A DNA stretch of 24,000 nucleotides from Natronospirillum sp. (GCA_049115955.1 JAGDZJ010000031.1:1-24000), one strand, 5' to 3'; positions 4,136 through 14,191 are shown, counted from the stretch's first letter. Program-made: numbers and translations. The notes: a model not told the origin generated them from the letters alone.

Positions 4136-5068
4136 ATGAATATGAAACACCTAACCACCGCCACAGCTTGCGTGCTGATGAGCGCCCCTATTACGGCCTG
4201 GAGCCAGCAATGCACTGACGTCCGCTTTTCTGATGTAGGCTGGACTGACATCACCGCCACCACGGCACTGGCCTCAGAAGTACTTGATGCCATCGGTTAC
4301 AACCCAACGGACCGTGTGTTGTCGGTACCGGTAACCTACCGTTCACTGGCTAATAACGACCTCGACGTCTTCTTGGGTAACTGGATGCCGACCATGGCAG
4401 CAGACATCGCCCCTTATCATGAAGACGGTACGGTTGAAACGCTGCGCGCGAACTTGGAAGGCGCCAAATACACACTGGCCGTCACCCAGACCGCCTACGA
4501 TGCAGGCTTGCAGAGCTTTGCCGACATCGCGCGTTTTTCCAGCGAGCTGAACGGTCGGATTTACGGCATTGAGCCAGGCAACGACGGCAACCGTTTAATT
4601 CAAGATATGATCGACGACAACGCCTTTGATTTAGGCGATTTCCGTCTGATGGAGTCGAGCGAAGCCGGTATGCTCAGTCAGGTAGCACGCGCTGTGCGAC
4701 GTGATGAGTGGATTGTCTTCTTGGGTTGGGAACCACACCCGATGAACGCCAATTTTGACCTTGTTTACCTTGAAGGCGGTGATGATTGGTTTGGGCCGGA
4801 TCTCGGCGGCGCGACTGTCTATACCAACGTGCGTGCAGGTTTCACCGAAGACTGCCCGAACTTGGGCACCTTCTTCAATAACCTGACGTTCACCTTAGAA
4901 ATGGAGAACGAGGTGATGGGCGCGATCATTAACGACGGACAAGACCCCGGCGTTGCGGCACGCACCTGGCTGACAGATAACCCCGAAGTGCTGACGGCAT
5001 GGCTGGACGGTGTAACCACACCCGCCGGCGAACCTGCTCTGCCAGTCGCTCAGGCGACGTTCCAGTAA
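4136..5068 (+). CDS. Glycine betaine/choline ABC transporter substrate-binding protein (ProX/OpuAC family), secreted
   Basis: I use the internal ATG at 4136, which has an AGGAAG RBS at 4121-4126. The tracked ORF start at 3992 would overlap betA by 119 nt. Signal peptide MNMKHLTTATACVLMSAPITAWS. OpuAC-type motifs VRFSDVGWTDITATT and DLDVFLGNWMP. Confidence 0.9.
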   Translation: MNMKHLTTATACVLMSAPITAWSQQCTDVRFSDVGWTDITATTALASEVLDAIGYNPTDRVLSVPVTYRSLANNDLDVFLGNWMPTMAADIAPYHEDGTVETLRANLEGAKYTLAVTQTAYDAGLQSFADIARFSSELNGRIYGIEPGNDGNRLIQDMIDDNAFDLGDFRLMESSEAGMLSQVARAVRRDEWIVFLGWEPHPMNANFDLVYLEGGDDWFGPDLGGATVYTNVRAGFTEDCPNLGTFFNNLTFTLEMENEVMGAIINDGQDPGVAARTWLTDNPEVLTAWLDGVTTPAGEPALPVAQATFQ

Positions 5069-5969: not shown

Positions 5970-7157
5970 ATGATTAATATCAATAACGTATCCGTGGTGT
6001 TCGGCAAGCAACCAGAACGCGCCTTGGCGCTGATGGATCAAGGGCTGGGTCGCGATGCCATCAAAGAACAAACCGGCTTGGTACTGGGCGTTCAAGAGGC
6101 AAATTTGCGCGTTGAGCGCGGTGAAATCTGTGTGTTGATGGGGTTGTCCGGCTCTGGTAAGTCCAGCCTATTGCGCTGCATTAACGGCTTGAATTCAGTT
6201 ACCCGTGGCGAAGTTTGCATTGAGCACGAAGGCAGCAGCATCGATTTTGCGGCTGCCGATAGCAAAACTCAGCAGGACATTCGAACCAACCGGGTGTCCA
6301 TGGTGTTTCAGAGCTTTGCGTTGATGCCTTGGCTCACCGTAGAAGAGAACATTGCCTTTGGCTTACGCCAGCAGAATCTCAGCAAAACCGAACTGAAGCG
6401 CCGTATTGAACAGCAACTGACGTTGGTGGGCTTGGAAGAATGGCGTTCAGCCTACGCGCACGAGCTGTCGGGTGGCATGCGCCAACGCGTTGGCTTGGCA
6501 CGCGCACTGGCGACGGAATCGGACATTTTATTGATGGACGAGCCGTTTTCTGCCCTAGACCCGCTGATCCGCCATCAGTTGCAGGAAGAGCTGTTAGAGC
6601 TGCAAACCACGCTACGCAAGACCATTGTGTTCGTGAGTCATGACCTAGACGAAGCCCTGAAGCTTGGGAATAAGATCGTCATCATGAAAGACGGGCAAAT
6701 CGTGCAACAGGGCCGACCTGAACAGATCATCCTATCGCCTGCCGACGACTACGTTAAAACCTTCGTGGCCAATACGAATCCGCTGAATACGCTGCAAGCG
6801 CAGTCGGTTATGACGCACCTTAAAGACACGCCGGCCGATGCCAACAACAACCTGTGCGTCAGTAAGCGTTATGACATCTGGGTGATGACACAGGACAACC
6901 TGGCGGACACGCAAGTCACCATGGCGGGTAAAACCTACCAAACGCAGTCGTGGCAGCCGGGGCAACCCATTGACGCGTTACAGAAGCTACCCACGTGCAT
7001 ACCGGGCCGAACCCCCATGCGTGATGCGGTGGAGATCTGCTACGTGACGGGACACAACATTTTGGTGGAGCAGAATGGTCAGTTAACCGGCACGATCGGT
7101 GAGCGTGAGATATACCACACGCTGCTGAGCAAGCACTTAGCGGACGACTTGTTGTAG
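5970..7157 (+). CDS. Glycine betaine/choline ABC transporter ATP-binding protein with C-terminal CBS-like tail (ProV/OpuAA family)
   Basis: I use the ATG at 5970, 1 nt after the permease stop. The tracked start at 5868 would overlap the permease. Walker A GLSGSGKSS, ABC signature LSGGMRQRV, Walker B ILLMDEPFSALD. About 120 aa follow the ABC core, as in ProV. Confidence 0.9.
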   Translation: MININNVSVVFGKQPERALALMDQGLGRDAIKEQTGLVLGVQEANLRVERGEICVLMGLSGSGKSSLLRCINGLNSVTRGEVCIEHEGSSIDFAAADSKTQQDIRTNRVSMVFQSFALMPWLTVEENIAFGLRQQNLSKTELKRRIEQQLTLVGLEEWRSAYAHELSGGMRQRVGLARALATESDILLMDEPFSALDPLIRHQLQEELLELQTTLRKTIVFVSHDLDEALKLGNKIVIMKDGQIVQQGRPEQIILSPADDYVKTFVANTNPLNTLQAQSVMTHLKDTPADANNNLCVSKRYDIWVMTQDNLADTQVTMAGKTYQTQSWQPGQPIDALQKLPTCIPGRTPMRDAVEICYVTGHNILVEQNGQLTGTIGEREIYHTLLSKHLADDLL

Positions 7158-8201: not shown

Positions 8202-8810
8202 ATGAAACTGGCCCTGCGTATTATCGCCACGCTTGCCCTAGTTGCTGTGGTGTTTACCGGCTTGTATTTGAATCAAGGCGAAGGTCTTCTGGGCCAGTCG
8301 TTACCAGCCGACAGCCGCGCGCTGCTCTTGGTGTTGACCTCGTCGCTGTACGCGCTCTTATTGGCCATTCCTTTTGTGCCGGGTGTTGAACTGGGCTGGA
8401 TGATCATGGGGTTGTTTGGCCGCATGGGTATTTTGGCGGCATGGCTGAGCACGATATTGGGGCTGAGCTTGAGCTACTGGGTGGCTCGTCGCTTGTCTGA
8501 CCACCCGAAACTGCAACGCCTACAAGTAGCGCGCTCGGCGCTGTTGGAAACCCCTCGACATGAATTATCAATGAGCCAGCGTCTTTTCGCCTCTGGCGTG
8601 CGCTTGTATGACAAGCACCCCTACTTGTTTATCTTCGTCACCTTGAACTTGCCCGGCAATTGGCTGTTGGGTGGTGGTGGCGGTATTGCGGCTACCGCTG
8701 GCATCATGCCCAAGGTCGGTTACGGCCGTTTTGTGCTGACCTGTGCACTCGCCACCGGCATTGTGCCTGCGCTGTTGTGGTTGGGCTTGGCCAATATTCC
8801 TGTTAATTAA
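8202..8810 (+). CDS. Small polytopic membrane protein, function unknown (weak DedA/TVP38-like flavour)
   Basis: 202-aa ORF with an ATG 16 nt after the yihY-like stop and 4-5 hydrophobic helices. The motif AIPFVPGVELGWMIMGLFG loosely resembles the DedA/TVP38 re-entrant loop. The family assignment is not secure. Confidence 0.55.
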   Translation: MKLALRIIATLALVAVVFTGLYLNQGEGLLGQSLPADSRALLLVLTSSLYALLLAIPFVPGVELGWMIMGLFGRMGILAAWLSTILGLSLSYWVARRLSDHPKLQRLQVARSALLETPRHELSMSQRLFASGVRLYDKHPYLFIFVTLNLPGNWLLGGGGGIAATAGIMPKVGYGRFVLTCALATGIVPALLWLGLANIPVN

Positions 8811-9720
8811 TAAACCGCGCTTTCACCTTTTCGTTGATCTCCGCCACCGGCACAATAATCCCCAATTCCAGGGCGTTTCCAAAATCCGCATCGAAGACCG
8901 TTTCGCCACACCAAATGCCAGTCGACAATGACATGTAAGACTGCAACACCGGTGGGATGTTCATGTCATAAGGGGTTAATGAATCGCGCAGTTGGCGGAT
9001 ACGCTCGTCGGCGGCGTCGTTAGCTGACAGCGTCGGAGCGGCTTGTGTGGGTTCATAGCGGCAGGTATCGCGTGCTACCAGGTAGGGTTCTGGCGGGGCA
9101 TAGTGCGCCTGCATGGTGCTGACCAACAAGTCTCTGCCGGTGTTGTTCAGGGTCTGATACAGCGACACATTGCCAAAGAAGTACTGCACCTCAGGATGTT
9201 TGCGCAACAAAGCGCCCAAGCCTACCCAAGTGGCGAAGAATCCCAGCGCACCTTTTTTGGCGGCCCGGTTAACCACCGAACGGCCCAGTTCAATGGCATA
9301 GGGCAGGATGTTGCGCTGAAATGAAACCGAATAGTCGAACAGACCATAGGTACGCAGGCACTCGGGGCCAAAGACGGTAGCCTTAGCCCCCTGCTGATAA
9401 CGGTACATGGCGACCATTTCTTGGTGTTCGGGGTCCCACGCCACCAACTGCGAGTAGCACTGTTCGCCATAATCGCGATGATCGAGGTCCAGCTCGTCAC
9501 CTCGCCCGGCACCAACGGCGCGGAAACCCGCTTCACGCAGCCGCCCTATTTCCTGCATGGCGGTTGGGCATTCATCGCCGGTAAAGCTGTAAATATTCAG
9601 GCCACGAAATTGTGCCAGCGGCGTCAACGCGGCGAGTTCTTGCACAACACTGTTGGCGGTAGCGTTGGAGATGGCAATAGGGTCTGCTTGAGCAAAGGTC
9701 GGTTGAGGAGCGAGTGTCAT
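8803..9720 (-). CDS. OlsB-family GNAT N-acyltransferase (lyso-aminolipid / N-acyl amino acid synthase type; often annotated 'putative hemolysin')
   Basis: 305-aa ORF. Family-typical block EIGRLREAGFRAVGAGRGDELDLDHRDYGEQCYSQLVAWDPEHQEMVAMYRY. C-terminal block IPPVLQSYMSLSTGIWCGETVFDADFGNA. Its ATG overlaps the upstream gene's stop (ATGA at 9717-9720). Confidence 0.8.
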   Translation of the reverse strand: MTLAPQPTFAQADPIAISNATANSVVQELAALTPLAQFRGLNIYSFTGDECPTAMQEIGRLREAGFRAVGAGRGDELDLDHRDYGEQCYSQLVAWDPEHQEMVAMYRYQQGAKATVFGPECLRTYGLFDYSVSFQRNILPYAIELGRSVVNRAAKKGALGFFATWVGLGALLRKHPEVQYFFGNVSLYQTLNNTGRDLLVSTMQAHYAPPEPYLVARDTCRYEPTQAAPTLSANDAADERIRQLRDSLTPYDMNIPPVLQSYMSLSTGIWCGETVFDADFGNALELGIIVPVAEINEKVKARFIN

Positions 9721-10973
9721 GATGAAGTCTCCTTCAAGACAAGAGAGGACATAGACTGAGCGGGCGCTGGATGCGGACGCGTCAGCCGATCATAGTGCGC
9801 GCGGACGGCCGCCATGCGCTGCTGATCGTTCGGGGCAAGCTGTTCAAGTTCCTCGACAGTGATGGCCTCTCCCGTGCTCACACCAAAGGTGCGGGTGGCG
9901 GGTTTCAACAGCTCGCGGGGCAGCAACGCCATTTCGAGGTTCAGAGCCACATTGAAGCGCTGGCGCAAAGCCGCGACGCCATGAAACAACCGCGAATTCG
10001 TGCCTTCCAAATGGATGGGCACCAATGGGCGACCATAGCGTCGGGCCAGAGTCACAGGCATGCTGTGCCATTCAAAGTCGGTCAACTTGCCCTGTTGCTT
10101 ACGGGCGGTGCGACCGGCCGGGAACACTAAAATAGCGGCATCGGTGGCGAAGGCGGCGTGCAGATTACGCACTGACTGGCGCGAAGACCGATAGCGATCC
10201 ACCGGCACGACCAAGGACTTCATCGGTGGAATCAAGGTCAATAAATCAGTCACCACCACCTTCACTTCCGGATAGTAACTTTGTAACCAGGCCAGCAGAA
10301 TGAGTCCGTCTAAGCCACCGGTCGGGTGATTCGCAATAAATACCGGGCGCGCTGCGACTGCGGGGAGCATTGCGCCATCAGGCACCTGTGCGCTGACGCC
10401 CAAGCGCTGCAACACCTGCGCGGGAAAACGGCGCTCGGGTGTCCAGGTTCGCCACCCCTCACGCTGGGTTGACCAAGGTAAGAAAAAATACTGCCGCAGC
10501 AGGGGAATCCACTGCGGCAGTAAGGAGGAAGTACTGAACGGCGAGCTGGGTGCTACCGTCTCCGACCAAGCCTGCTCTGACCAACGCCAGCACAGCGGCT
10601 CTTGGGTTTGCCAAAAAACAAAGACCACGCAGGGCGCGAAATCCATTGGCGCAGTATTCTGCAACTGCAAGCGCACGGCCATCGGCGTGGCGCAGGTACT
10701 CAGGGCGCGTACCAAGCGGCCACGGCTCTGGGTAGCGGTGGTGGTCCGGTGTTGTTGCTCAGCGGCGTAATCGTTCAGCAAACAAATCGTCAGTCCGTGG
10801 TCGTTGGTGGCCAGCCAAAAGCCATCACCTTCGGGGTCACGCGGGGCCAGTATCTTGCGCCCCCCCTCATTGAACACAGACGGCGGCTCGGCTTCGATAC
10901 GACTGCACCGTTCATCCCGGCTGAACACAATATTCAATGCGCCTTGGTGATGTTGCCAACTTAGGGTGCACAT
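9717..10973 (-). CDS. Fusion protein: N-terminal NRDE/TANGO2-like (Cys2 Ntn-type) domain plus C-terminal PlsC/OlsA-like lysolipid O-acyltransferase domain
   Basis: 418-aa ORF.
- N-terminus: MCTLSW...FSRDE (aa 17-21), APRDPEGDGFWLATNDHGLTICLLN (aa 43-67) and SRGRLV (aa 83-88). These follow the NRDE-family pattern MC..., NRDE, GGRD..GGTWLG...LTN, SRG.L.
- C-terminus: VFIANHPTGGLDGLILL (aa 211-227; nt 10305-10334 verified by hand) and ILVFPAGRTARK, typical of the acyltransferases paired with OlsB-family genes.
- The ORF is confident; the domain calls have confidence about 0.6. Confidence 0.8.
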   Translation of the reverse strand: MCTLSWQHHQGALNIVFSRDERCSRIEAEPPSVFNEGGRKILAPRDPEGDGFWLATNDHGLTICLLNDYAAEQQHRTTTATQSRGRLVRALSTCATPMAVRLQLQNTAPMDFAPCVVFVFWQTQEPLCWRWSEQAWSETVAPSSPFSTSSLLPQWIPLLRQYFFLPWSTQREGWRTWTPERRFPAQVLQRLGVSAQVPDGAMLPAVAARPVFIANHPTGGLDGLILLAWLQSYYPEVKVVVTDLLTLIPPMKSLVVPVDRYRSSRQSVRNLHAAFATDAAILVFPAGRTARKQQGKLTDFEWHSMPVTLARRYGRPLVPIHLEGTNSRLFHGVAALRQRFNVALNLEMALLPRELLKPATRTFGVSTGEAITVEELEQLAPNDQQRMAAVRAHYDRLTRPHPAPAQSMSSLVLKETSS

Positions 10974-11521
10974 AACGACTGCCCCGCAAACTGCGACGTT
11001 TCATAGCGGCGGGTAGACGGGTTAACGCCAAAACCCGGTGGCATGGCACCGCCCTGTATCACCACCAGCATCTCCACCAAGGCAAAGTGATGAATGCTGT
11101 GTTGCGTGAGAAACACCAGTTCGCGGGCCAAGGTGGTTGTGACCTGCGCATTGCCATCGTCGGTGCAGTAGTCCAGCGTGAGCGTCTGGTCACCCTGTTG
11201 CATGTGTGGTGCCAACGCTTTCTGGACACGCTGCAACAACGTCAAAGCATGCTGTGGGTCGGCTTCGACGAGCGGGTCACGTTGGCGGTGTTCGTAGTCG
11301 ATGTCGGTGCCACCGGATAAGGCGGCGGACAAGGCGAGATAATGATCCAAGATATGCCGCACATGGCGGCCCGGCGTCTGCCCGTGTGGCAGGGACTCAC
11401 AACGGCCGCTGTACTCCGTGTGGCTCACTTGCGCCAGCCAGTGCTCTAGGCGCTGCATGACACCGATGGCTTCGCGCCACAACACGCTCATGTCGGCCCG
11501 TGTCCGTTGGTTGCTGTCCAT
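10961..11521 (-). CDS. DinB-superfamily (DinB_2-like) putative metalloenzyme
   Basis: 186 aa from the ATG at 11521, which has a GAGGGA RBS 6 nt upstream. The tracked start at 11524 is a TTG. Putative His triad HVRHILDHY ... HSIHHFAL in a roughly 180-aa helical protein. Its stop overlaps the next gene's start by 13 nt. Confidence 0.7.
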   Translation of the reverse strand: MDSNQRTRADMSVLWREAIGVMQRLEHWLAQVSHTEYSGRCESLPHGQTPGRHVRHILDHYLALSAALSGGTDIDYEHRQRDPLVEADPQHALTLLQRVQKALAPHMQQGDQTLTLDYCTDDGNAQVTTTLARELVFLTQHSIHHFALVEMLVVIQGGAMPPGFGVNPSTRRYETSQFAGQSLCAP

Positions 11522-11618
11522 CAATCGTCCCTCGGCTAGGCTTCAAACTCTCCTTTTGACCAGCGAACAATCAATTAGTTCAAACTCCCGTTTCTCGGGC
11601 GAAGCCGCCAGAAATTAC

Positions 11619-11627
11619 TGTTATACT
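11619..11627 (+). promoter_or_regulatory. Candidate extended -10 promoter element (TGTTATACT) for mgtE
   Basis: TG-n-TATACT lies 64 nt upstream of the mgtE ATG. There is no convincing -35, which is tolerated by extended -10 promoters. Confidence 0.3.
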
Positions 11628-11649
11628 TTGTAACCAGAAATACGCGCGA

Positions 11650-11667
11650 GGCGACAAGCACGTCGCC
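11650..11667 (+). other. 5' leader hairpin GGCGAC-aagcac-GTCGCC upstream of mgtE
   Basis: A perfect 6-bp stem with a 6-nt loop lies 13 nt upstream of the GGGGAAGAG RBS region. Confidence 0.3.
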
Positions 11668-11690
11668 GCCACACAGCAGGGGAAGAGCTT

Positions 11691-13105: not shown

Positions 13106-14191
13106 ATGAAGTTTAAGGGCATAGCGGACTACTCCCACGCGCAGGCAGACAAAACCGGTATTCTGATTACTAACTTGGGCACCCCTGACGCCGCCGAAAG
13201 CGGCGCGGTGCGTCGGTACTTGCGCGAATTTTTGTCCGATTCCCGTGTGGTGGAAATCCCCAAAGCCATTTGGTGGTTTATTCTCAACGGCATTATTTTG
13301 GCCATTCGCCCGGCACGCTCCGCCAAAAATTACCGCACGGTATGGACCGAACGCGGCTCGCCGCTGCTGTATCACACGGCCGATCAGTGCGAGGCCGTGC
13401 GCGCATACATGAAGGGCAAATACGGTGACGACGTGGTGGTGGAATTTGCCATGCGTTACGGCAATCCGTCGGTGACCTCCGTGCTCGAACGCATGCAGCA
13501 GCAAGGTGTGCGTCGCTTATTGGTACTGCCGATGTACCCACAATATTCGGCCACCACTACTGCTTCGACCTTTGACGCAGTGGCGGCGGATTTCGCCAAG
13601 CGCCGCTGGATTCCCGAGCTGCGCTTTATCAATCATTACCACGATTTCGAACCCTACATTGACGCCATGGCGGCGCACATTCAGGCGTATCAATCCGAGC
13701 ACGGCAAGCCGGAAAAACTGGTGTTGTCATACCACGGTATTCCGAAACGCAATTTGCTGGAAGGCGACCCTTACCACTGCGAGTGCTATAAGACCTCTCG
13801 TTTGTTAACCGAGAAGCTGGGCCTGACGCGGGATGACGTCATCACGACGTTTCAGTCACGATTCGGCAAACAGGAATGGTTGAAGCCGTATACCGACGCC
13901 ACCATGCAGCAACTGGGTGCCGACGGCGTGAAATCCATTCAGGTGTTCTGCCCGGGCTTTCCATCGGACTGTTTGGAAACTATTGAAGAGATCGGCGAAG
14001 AGAACCGTGAATACTTCGAAGAAGCAGGTGGCGAGCACTTTGGTTATATTCCGGCGCTGAACGCCACTCCAGGGCACATTGACGCGTTGACCGCGTTACT
14101 GGAACAGCATTTGAAAGGCTGGCAGCCGTTGGCTACCCAAGACAAAAGCACGAGCGTGCGGGAGCACGCTCGGTTGGCTGCCACGAAATAA
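13106..14191 (+). CDS. hemH: Ferrochelatase
   Basis: I use the ATG at 13106 (MKFKGIADY...). The tracked start at 12902 would overlap mgtE by 145 nt. Motifs GILITNLGTPDA, LVLPMYPQYSATT, LVLSYHGIP (catalytic His) and FCPGFPSDCLETIEEI. Confidence 0.95.
   Translation: MKFKGIADYSHAQADKTGILITNLGTPDAAESGAVRRYLREFLSDSRVVEIPKAIWWFILNGIILAIRPARSAKNYRTVWTERGSPLLYHTADQCEAVRAYMKGKYGDDVVVEFAMRYGNPSVTSVLERMQQQGVRRLLVLPMYPQYSATTTASTFDAVAADFAKRRWIPELRFINHYHDFEPYIDAMAAHIQAYQSEHGKPEKLVLSYHGIPKRNLLEGDPYHCECYKTSRLLTEKLGLTRDDVITTFQSRFGKQEWLKPYTDATMQQLGADGVKSIQVFCPGFPSDCLETIEEIGEENREYFEEAGGEHFGYIPALNATPGHIDALTALLEQHLKGWQPLATQDKSTSVREHARLAATK

Follow-up and report, generated by a model that had tools for sequence, protein, structure and literature searches.

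The genome of a haloalkaliphilic Natronospirillum, represented by a metagenome-assembled genome (MAG), carries an operon in which the enzymes of an aminolipid pathway are combined with a protein domain of the NRDE/TANGO2 family. The DNA analyzed, hereafter called the window, is a stretch of 24,000 nt (GCA_049115955.1 JAGDZJ010000031.1:1-24000). Three genes located on the minus strand encode a DinB-fold protein, a fusion of an NRDE/TANGO2 domain to an acyltransferase, and an N-acyltransferase of the GNAT type. In the reading that we favour, to which we assign a probability of about 0.65, the acyltransferase and the GNAT represent a synthase of the OlsF/GlsBA type split into two genes, the DinB and NRDE proteins an older module recruited to it, and the copy residing in the window is damaged. 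The three genes are:

10961..11521, minus strand: gene of the DinB-fold protein (186 aa from an ATG; a TTG lies 3 nt upstream)
9717..10973, minus strand: gene of the NRDE/TANGO2-acyltransferase fusion (418 aa; apparently an internally deleted allele of a 545-546-aa protein)
8803..9720, minus strand: gene of the GNAT N-acyltransferase, GlsB / OlsF-C type (305 aa; appears intact)

The three overlapping open reading frames (ORFs) described in an initial annotation of the window were all found in place. The DinB stop and the fusion start both lie within ATGTGCACCCTAA at 10961-10973, an overlap of 13 nt, and the ATGA at 9717-9720, an overlap of 4 nt, provides the GNAT start and the fusion stop. Shine-Dalgarno-like sequences precede the first (GAGGGA, DinB) and the third (AAGGAG, GNAT) start. 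The genes make up one translationally coupled operon, as had been supposed from the overlaps; the conserved gene order and the recurrence of the 13-nt overlap across genera back this assignment. The four Pfam families anticipated in the annotation (a DinB type, TANGO2, an acyltransferase, and PF13444) were all detected. The fusion protein is 100% identical to a database entry at NCBI, from a Natronospirillum sp. MAG, titled merely 'NRDE family protein'.

The acyltransferase and the GNAT as a split aminolipid synthase

The GNAT protein matches PF13444 at 34.2 bits (cut-off 22.4), the NCBIfam GlsB profile at 214 bits, along profile positions 29-302 of 303, and the C-terminal half of OlsF at 159 bits. 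The fusion matches Acyltransf_2 at 110 bits (E=1e-31, residues 207-380), PF01553 at 27.9 bits, and NCBIfam GlsA at 163 bits (186 bits in the full-length relative P0002). The NCBIfam OlsF profile matches both halves of the system, acyltransferase and GNAT, at 137-159 bits. The catalytic motifs NHPTGGLDG and FPAGRT are retained in the acyltransferase core, and the C-terminal domain of the P0002 structural model matches GPAT and PlsC. From these profile matches, the two proteins are predicted to form a split acyloxyacyl-aminolipid synthase, and the two-step logic first proposed for the last two products of the operon holds.

The synthase resembles OlsF, the ornithine/lysine lipid synthase of Serratia, Vibrio and Flavobacterium, and GlsB/GlsA, which make glycine lipids in Bacteroides, in belonging to the same two catalytic families, the Acyltransf_2 O-acyltransferases and the PF13444 GNATs. 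The genes, acyltransferase followed by GNAT, are arranged like the domains of OlsF, and the GlsA, GlsB and OlsF profiles match full-length relatives along nearly their entire length. The system differs from OlsF in being split into two genes, and from both OlsF and GlsBA in its scores, which are under the equivalog cut-offs, in the NRDE/TANGO2 domain fused N-terminally to the acyltransferase, and in the presence of a DinB gene, always adjacent, and often of a DUF547 gene. The acyl donors of OlsF have not been determined (PMC12971839). An unidentified aminolipid is listed for the type strains of both Salinispirillum marinum and Natronospirillum operosum, which grow up to pH 10 (PMC11966569).

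Since both lipid enzymes score under every equivalog cut-off, the amino acid serving as head group cannot be named. Ornithine, glycine and lysine were considered as head groups, and rejected for the same reason.

The NRDE/TANGO2 domain

The fusion is made of two domains, the first of the N-terminal nucleophile type with cysteine as nucleophile (Cys-Ntn):

10434..10973, minus strand: remnant of the NRDE/TANGO2 (Cys-Ntn) domain, residues 1-180 (Pfam TANGO2, alignments, profile alignment to 8sv7)
9717..10433, minus strand: Acyltransf_2 / GlsA- and OlsF-N-type O-acyltransferase core, residues 181-418 (Pfam and NCBIfam)

Pfam TANGO2 (PF05742) matches the fusion at 32.8 bits (cut-off 22.6; E=1e-7) over residues 1-90, which cover profile positions 1-93 of 257 only. 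The protein begins with MCTLSW, Cys being the residue next to the initiator Met, and carries the NRDE motif as S18-R19-D20-E21. The remnant keeps Cys2, the four motif residues, N67, R84, an SSS motif and R160; the last three beta-strands of the fold are absent. Cys2, R19, D20, E21, N67, S83 and G85 are near-invariant in an alignment of 33 fusions, and the same residues, along with R84, are invariant in 14 fused or standalone NRDE domains.

A profile restricted to the NRDE domain reaches human TANGO2 (8sv7) at E=0.013, placing (N/S)18-R19-D20-E21 on N25-R26-D27-E28, N67 on N75, and R84 on R88; nothing useful was matched when a profile of the whole fusion was compared to solved structures. The NRDE-motif residues, N75 and R88 have been proposed as catalytic or ligand-binding in the human TANGO2 crystal study, where the structure was interpreted as a Cys-Ntn hydrolase (PMC13044924). 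Human TANGO2 binds acyl-CoA, and the NRDE motif is required (PMC11867700). The Tyr equivalent to human Y116 is replaced by Phe in the window and in S. marinum.

The 150 top-ranking relatives of the domain among 1.84 billion representative proteins include ~19 fusions and ~130 standalone proteins of 235-265 aa, and 145 of the 150 align from their own residue 1. Covalent fusion of NRDE to the acyltransferase is found in ~19 independent clusters defined at 50% identity. In fusions the NRDE domain is invariably N-terminal, as an N-terminal-nucleophile mechanism requires.

In the AlphaFold model of P0002 (pLDDT 86.5, pTM 0.88), the N-terminal domain is a complete four-layer alpha-beta-beta-alpha sandwich. 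Foldseek matched it to acyl-CoA:isopenicillin N acyltransferase (IAT; E=2.5e-7), and also to bile salt hydrolases, penicillin V acylase, acid ceramidase, and the bacterial NRDE structure 3gvz. IAT and the bile salt hydrolase/transferases, the best structural matches of the full-length fold, move acyl groups to or from amides through an acyl-thioester on the N-terminal Cys, acyl-CoA being the donor in IAT (PMC13044924). They differ from NRDE in sequence, identity being only 9-12%, and in processing; because Cys follows the initiator Met, NRDE needs no autoproteolytic propeptide. Members of the TANGO2/NRDE family, as human TANGO2 (8sv7), Shewanella HtpA and CV2077 (3gvz), share with the fusions the Met-Cys start, the (N/S)RDE motif, the equivalents of N75 and R88, and the Ntn fold seen in the full-length model. 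The window-type protein departs from them in the fusion to a lipid acyltransferase and in the change of N25 to Ser, and in the window Y116 is changed to Phe and the C-terminal third of the fold is missing.

The DinB-fold protein

The first gene is a marginal match to Pfam profiles: PF05163 (DinB) passes at 23.6 bits (cut-off 23.0), PF12867 (DinB_2) fails at 24.0 bits (cut-off 24.8). The DinB fold is nonetheless confirmed by modelling. An AlphaFold2 model obtained with database homologues (pLDDT 87.8) is a DinB/YfiT four-helix bundle, and every one of its top Foldseek matches, including YizA, YfiT, mycothiol-dependent maleylpyruvate isomerase and mycothiol S-transferase (TM 0.55-0.6), is a DinB/YfiT-fold protein. 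At the sequence level, a profile of the family matched nothing useful among solved structures.

The His motifs first spotted by eye, HVRHILDH (residues 53-60) and HSIHH (141-145), are real, and their His residues are invariant in 12 relatives. Invariant positions in the alignment of these orthologues are H53, R55, H56, H60, Y61, Y76, R79, R81, R133, E134, H141, H144 and H145. Binding of a metal by any three of the six invariant His (H53, H56, H60, H141, H144, H145) is putative. The protein has in common with thiol S-transferases and isomerases of the DinB/YfiT fold (YfiT/BstA, mycothiol S-transferase, maleylpyruvate isomerase) the four-helix bundle and the His residues on helices 2 and 4 (H56/H60, H141/H145), but represents a distinct subfamily, marked by the additional invariant motifs RH..H..HY, DY.xRxR, REL.F and FGV.xST. 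Gammaproteobacteria are not known to contain mycothiol or bacillithiol.

Conservation of the gene set

Related loci carrying the acyltransferase family were identified in Natronospirillaceae, Alkalimonas, Alishewanella, Arsukibacterium and soda-lake spirochaetes. In all 11 the DinB gene is adjacent and the GNAT gene adjacent or close by, and the order DinB, NRDE-acyltransferase, GNAT is kept in 9. The exceptions are a locus in which DinB is fused directly to the acyltransferase (L004), and one in which the GNAT gene is upstream of the others (L007). The expectation that the trio would prove a conserved neighbourhood was thus borne out; it was found in Alkalimonas amylolytica, Alishewanella, Arsukibacterium, a soda-lake spirochaete, and several metagenomic contigs, and two proteins, P0037 and P0035, are DinB-acyltransferase fusions. 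The named hosts of the cassette are haloalkaliphiles.

The nearest relatives of the operon, in S. marinum (L001) and in loci L009 and L092, reside in the same context as in the window, with genes for enoyl-CoA hydratase, ferrochelatase and mgtE. The 13-nt overlap between DinB and fusion genes is identical in L001, L002, L005, L008 and L009. DinB proteins of L002, L005 and L008 are only 31-33% identical to that of the window, the overlap being identical nonetheless, and its conservation explains the C-terminal 'CAP' shared by DinB proteins otherwise divergent.

Natronospirillum genomes carry a second type of locus, with prkA-DUF444-spoVR and a GH65 gene at its flanks. One MAG has DinB followed at this locus by a degenerate NRDE-acyltransferase, in which Cys2 is changed to Asp and the NRDE motif is lost. 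In N. operosum, the same locus encodes a single 486-aa DinB-acyltransferase fusion devoid of NRDE, which ties DinB functionally to the acyltransferase and shows that NRDE is dispensable. As NRDE is degenerate or absent in some cassettes otherwise intact, in which DinB, acyltransferase and GNAT are kept, the domain should be regarded as accessory rather than as a required step.

Additional features were noted in single groups of loci. The database start of the Arsukibacterium fusion P0036 ('MHIVFNRDE') is mis-called; ATGTGCACCCTAAGC at L005 4965 (4965-5001) restores both the MCTLSW terminus and the 13-nt overlap. The region immediately upstream of the cassette holds, in Alkalimonas and Alishewanella (L002 306-2863; L008 1-1880), a bufferin-type cluster (BufA1, MbnB_TglH_ChrH, HvfC_N, DoxX) together with a divergent AraC/Cupin_6 regulator. 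The window has no counterpart of the genes that open the operon of these bacteria, which encode a 150-aa protein, an HD_5 phosphohydrolase and an 82-aa membrane protein. A PF01804 protein of the penicillin-amidase family (~790 aa), another Ntn hydrolase, is encoded downstream of the cassette in S. marinum (L001 11268-13634, minus strand) and in L092 (8149-10521, minus strand), not in the window.

DinB and NRDE as an independent gene pair

A metagenome scan with a DinB profile returned 256 relatives, and 80 loci were examined, a sample that is centred on DinB. A standalone NRDE gene is located 9-35 nt downstream of DinB in 12 of the 80 loci. GNAT and/or acyltransferase genes are adjacent or within a few kb in 9, several of which have no NRDE. 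DinB and standalone NRDE appear from these neighbourhoods to be an older, independent gene pair. DinB-NRDE pairs exist in non-lipid contexts, which suggests that the lipid cassette captured a pre-existing module; the initial annotation, in which both were modules simply attached to lipid synthesis, needs to be revised on this point.

Many of the remaining loci represent another cluster, made of a TTL-family ATP-grasp protein, a small protein with an acidic tail, DinB, sometimes NRDE, and a cytochrome c/CCP-like or DUF302 protein. The cluster is seen at L047 1962-6887, also in L021, L023, L029, L041, L043, L051, L078 and L091, and in many of L012-L090. The ATP-grasp protein measures ~800 aa and has a weak PqqD-like match. 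The small protein starts with 'MSRETQKQRLLGKLARG', continues with a transmembrane or signal segment, and terminates in an acidic (G/A/K-E)n repeat tail. The last member is a protein featuring GEAE repeats and CxxCH cytochrome c motifs, or DUF302. The TTL-DinB cluster may be a peptide-modification system.

The vicinity of cytochrome genes raises an alternative. NRDE could be a heme-handling protein like Shewanella HtpA, its association with the acyltransferase being either incidental or a means to control lipid synthesis by heme or redox state. Heme trafficking for the maturation of cytochrome c has been reported for bacterial TANGO2 homologues (PMC10470608), standalone DinB-NRDE pairs are found beside CxxCH cytochrome c or CCP_MauG genes, and a ferrochelatase gene is two genes away from the operon in the window, L001, L009 and L092. 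This ferrochelatase synteny, however, is confined to Natronospirillaceae. In the ~19 independent clusters NRDE is covalently joined to a lyso-lipid acyltransferase, and a GNAT partner always accompanies it. A role of TANGO2 in heme handling is itself disputed (PMC12782551), heme binding being called nonspecific in the crystal study (PMC13044924), and both the window and S. marinum have Phe in place of the Tyr implicated in heme binding, equivalent to Y116. We consider a heme function of the fused domain very improbable.

Two deletions in the Natronospirillum operon

The fusion of the window does not represent the native architecture. Comparison to relatives indicates that it has lost 128 residues of a 545-546-aa protein, including core parts of both domains. 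The junction is located as follows:

10431..10445, minus strand: junction of an in-frame 384-nt deletion, E180 (codon 10434-10436) / R181 (codon 10431-10433) (blastn vs L001)

The closest relative, S. marinum, has ~85% DNA identity and a fusion of 546 aa, to which the window protein aligns along residues 1-180 and 306-546. The blastn alignment breaks at 10481/10434 in the window and at 6493/6924 in L001, so that 46 nt of the window correspond to 430 nt of L001; the net loss, 384 nt, amounts to 128 codons and leaves the reading frame intact. A short homology, GGACACC, is present at 10438-10444, and GGAC(A/G)CC at both ends of the deletion. Fusions measure ~520-605 aa in the other members of the 33-sequence alignment. 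In the three nearest relatives, two fusions have 545-546 aa, and the third, in L009, is broken into two ORFs where a frameshift falls in the linker.

The missing block includes the near-invariant residues M200, T207, V208, S209, P273 and N297 in the same alignment. According to the P0002 model, the deleted residues (181-308) form one helix, the last three strands of the sandwich, and the four helices opening the acyltransferase domain. The NRDE domain has lost strands 205-216, 219-226 and 237-242, with invariant M200, R202, T207 and S209, and near-invariant V208, and its sandwich is incomplete, unlike that of P0002. The acyltransferase helices at 264-302 also fall in the deleted block. Acyltransferase profiles match full-length relatives, P0002 included, and standalone acyltransferases from position 2; in the window the match starts at position 69 of 266 (Pfam) or 51 of 267 (NCBIfam GlsA), the first 50-68 profile positions, corresponding to the four N-terminal helices, being missing. 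The window copy thus appears to be a derived, damaged allele; loss of function is not established by codon counts.

A second loss affects the 5' end of the operon. Three genes had been described for the operon; in L001, L009 and L092 a leading DUF547 gene, missed at that stage, is first in the operon. It encodes a protein of 275-296 aa featuring a signal or transmembrane segment, and abuts the DinB start or overlaps it by 1-4 nt. The mgtE-DinB spacer of the window corresponds to the mgtE-DUF547 spacer of these relatives joined to the DUF547-DinB junction at the 9-nt repeat GCCGA(G/T)GGA, and the scar is seen as GCCGAGGGA at 11528-11536. DUF547 seems therefore to have been removed by a clean deletion between 9-nt repeats which spared the upstream region, and the native operon of this lineage is predicted to have four genes, DUF547 leading. 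A DUF547 gene adjoins or is near the cassette also in the soda-lake spirochaete (L003) and in L007. A search of the DUF547 literature provided no functional information.

The middle gene of the window could alternatively be a dead remnant, or an artefact of MAG assembly, in which case only DinB and GNAT would be functional locally. The deletion takes away three core beta-strands and four helices conserved in all other members, standalone acyltransferases included, the gene is split by a frameshift in L009, and NRDE has decayed in the sister cassette of Natronospirillum. Against this, the deletion is in frame, both overlaps with neighbouring genes are preserved, nonsynonymous changes are not in excess in the remaining codons, and the short repeats at the junctions of both deletions are typical of real events. 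The possibility is a serious one, which we rate below even odds, and concerns this copy only, not the conserved family.

Proposed mechanism

The split synthase with its recruited DinB/NRDE module may be envisaged to work as follows. By family homology, the GNAT (8803-9720) would N-acylate an amino acid with a 3-hydroxyacyl chain, producing a lyso-aminolipid, and the Acyltransf_2 domain would esterify the 3-hydroxyl with a second acyl chain. NRDE being at the extreme N-terminus of the acyltransferase, Cys2 would become a free N-terminal nucleophile. The fusion, the fold and the TANGO2 papers suggest that Cys2 might accept an acyl group, for which acyl-CoA is the probable source, hold it as a thioester and hand it on to the acyltransferase; NRDE might instead edit, cleave or transfer the amide-linked product. 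We favour a role of this kind, as acyl relay or amide editor, and infer it without telling the two apart. DinB could be the metal-dependent partner of NRDE. At the window locus, DinB and GNAT alone look intact, and the N-acyl (lyso) product may be the most that the cell obtains from it.

A variant centred on hydrolysis, the idea put forward in the initial annotation, overlaps heavily with the reading above. NRDE would be an amidase or transamidase remodelling the lipid, Cys2 attacking the amide of the N-acyl amino acid or lyso-aminolipid. Either the amino acid would be released (turnover or proofreading), or the acyl chain moved to another amine (head-group exchange), as in bile salt hydrolase/transferases and IAT. 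The best fold matches, IAT, bile salt hydrolases, penicillin V acylase and acid ceramidase, are Cys-Ntn enzymes acting on amide bonds, the human TANGO2 structure was interpreted as such a hydrolase (PMC13044924), and exactly such an amide is present in the GNAT product. Non-lipid DinB-NRDE pairs adjoin another amide-forming enzyme, the TTL ATP-grasp protein, and NRDE is accessory, as expected of an editing enzyme. Yet hydrolase activity is established for no TANGO2, the N25 equivalent is Ser here, and a degrading activity fused to a biosynthetic acyltransferase is counter-intuitive, unless it is a transferase. An amidase or transamidase is accordingly thought somewhat unlikely.

Several observations weigh against a split synthase provided with a recruited DinB/NRDE module. 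No lipid product, acyl donor or enzyme activity is established for any member of the cassette, and the equivalog cut-offs are missed by GlsB (214 vs 300), GlsA (163 vs 260) and OlsF (137-159 vs 620). The equivalent of N25, the putative catalytic Asn of human TANGO2, is Ser in the subclade of the window. NRDE is dead or missing in some cassettes (Cys2 changed to Asp in P0027, no NRDE in P0037), which speaks against an obligatory acyl relay. DinB-NRDE pairs occur without any lipid gene beside cytochrome c genes, a location that fits heme trafficking. As to the damage, both deletions are read from assembled MAG sequence, and the lineage-specific nonsynonymous:synonymous ratios of the deleted gene, obtained by comparing window, L001 and L009, are not raised (9:19 and 7:15 in the window, 8:17 and 11:20 in L001), counts too small to decide on relaxed selection. 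The lack of an excess of nonsynonymous changes suggests that the deletion is recent or tolerated.

Implications for TANGO2

The molecular function of TANGO2 is open and disputed, roles as heme chaperone, acyl-CoA binder and Cys-Ntn hydrolase having been proposed, and is relevant to human metabolic disease. The recurrent fusion of TANGO2 to a lyso-lipid acyltransferase, with a free N-terminal Cys and DinB always adjacent and sometimes fused, provides an independent evolutionary clue to acyl-lipid chemistry. The TANGO2 literature searched mentions neither an acyltransferase fusion nor a DinB partner, and in the recent aminolipid reviews that were searched no mention of TANGO2, NRDE, DinB or DUF547 was found.

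A wider and more tentative idea, which we hold to be unlikely, is that the fusions reveal the ancestral job of TANGO2, a Cys2 acyl-transfer or editing enzyme acting on the acyl donor or the amide product of lyso-lipid acyltransferases, with DinB as dedicated partner. If true, this would explain the accumulation of lysolipids upon loss of human TANGO2, and would give a simple bacterial system to reconstitute TANGO2 chemistry. The question is tractable in bacteria, where the deleted allele of the window is a natural control to the genes of full-length relatives. With the cassette, the aminolipid pathway gains three accessory genes that are so far uncharacterised (DinB-like, NRDE, DUF547), and a haloalkaliphile lineage is suggested as source of a possibly modified aminolipid.

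Flanking regions and other sequence features

Two further elements were annotated in and next to the operon:

11522..11690, no strand assigned: intergenic/promoter region common to the operon and the divergent mgtE
10489..10522, minus strand: intragenic hairpin and U-run inside the fusion gene (terminator-like scan, folding)

A search of the window detected no Rfam family, so no riboswitch or leader accounts for the mgtE/operon intergenic region. The intragenic hairpin excepted, a promoter and terminator scan of the window scored no better than shuffled sequence, and nothing obvious was noticed when the 170-nt promoter region was read by eye for a Pho regulon signal, no Pho-box search having been made. 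The intergenic region includes a 19-nt element, GGTTACAAAGTATAACAGT at 11616-11634, identical in the window, L009 and L001. The flanks of the element differ between the window and L001, and it may serve one of the divergent genes as an operator or promoter element.

The hairpin at 10489-10522 has a perfect 14-bp stem (-25.1 kcal/mol, z = -7.9) and is followed by UUUUUUCUU. It is located ~45-50 nt 5' of the deletion junction (10434|10433), encodes LLPQWIPLLRQYFF, and is present in L001 too. It could be an internal attenuator or a deletion hotspot.

The ferrochelatase gene (hemH; 13106-14191, plus strand) lies beyond mgtE, two genes from the operon. At the opposite side, a plus-strand gene at 8202-8810 converges on the GNAT gene, overlapping its 3' end by 8 nt, and encodes a 202-aa membrane protein with a weak match to the VTT/DedA domain (18.6 bits, under cut-off). 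In L009 the cassette is followed by a similar gene, and the spirochaete cassette of L003 has a VTT_dom gene nearby.

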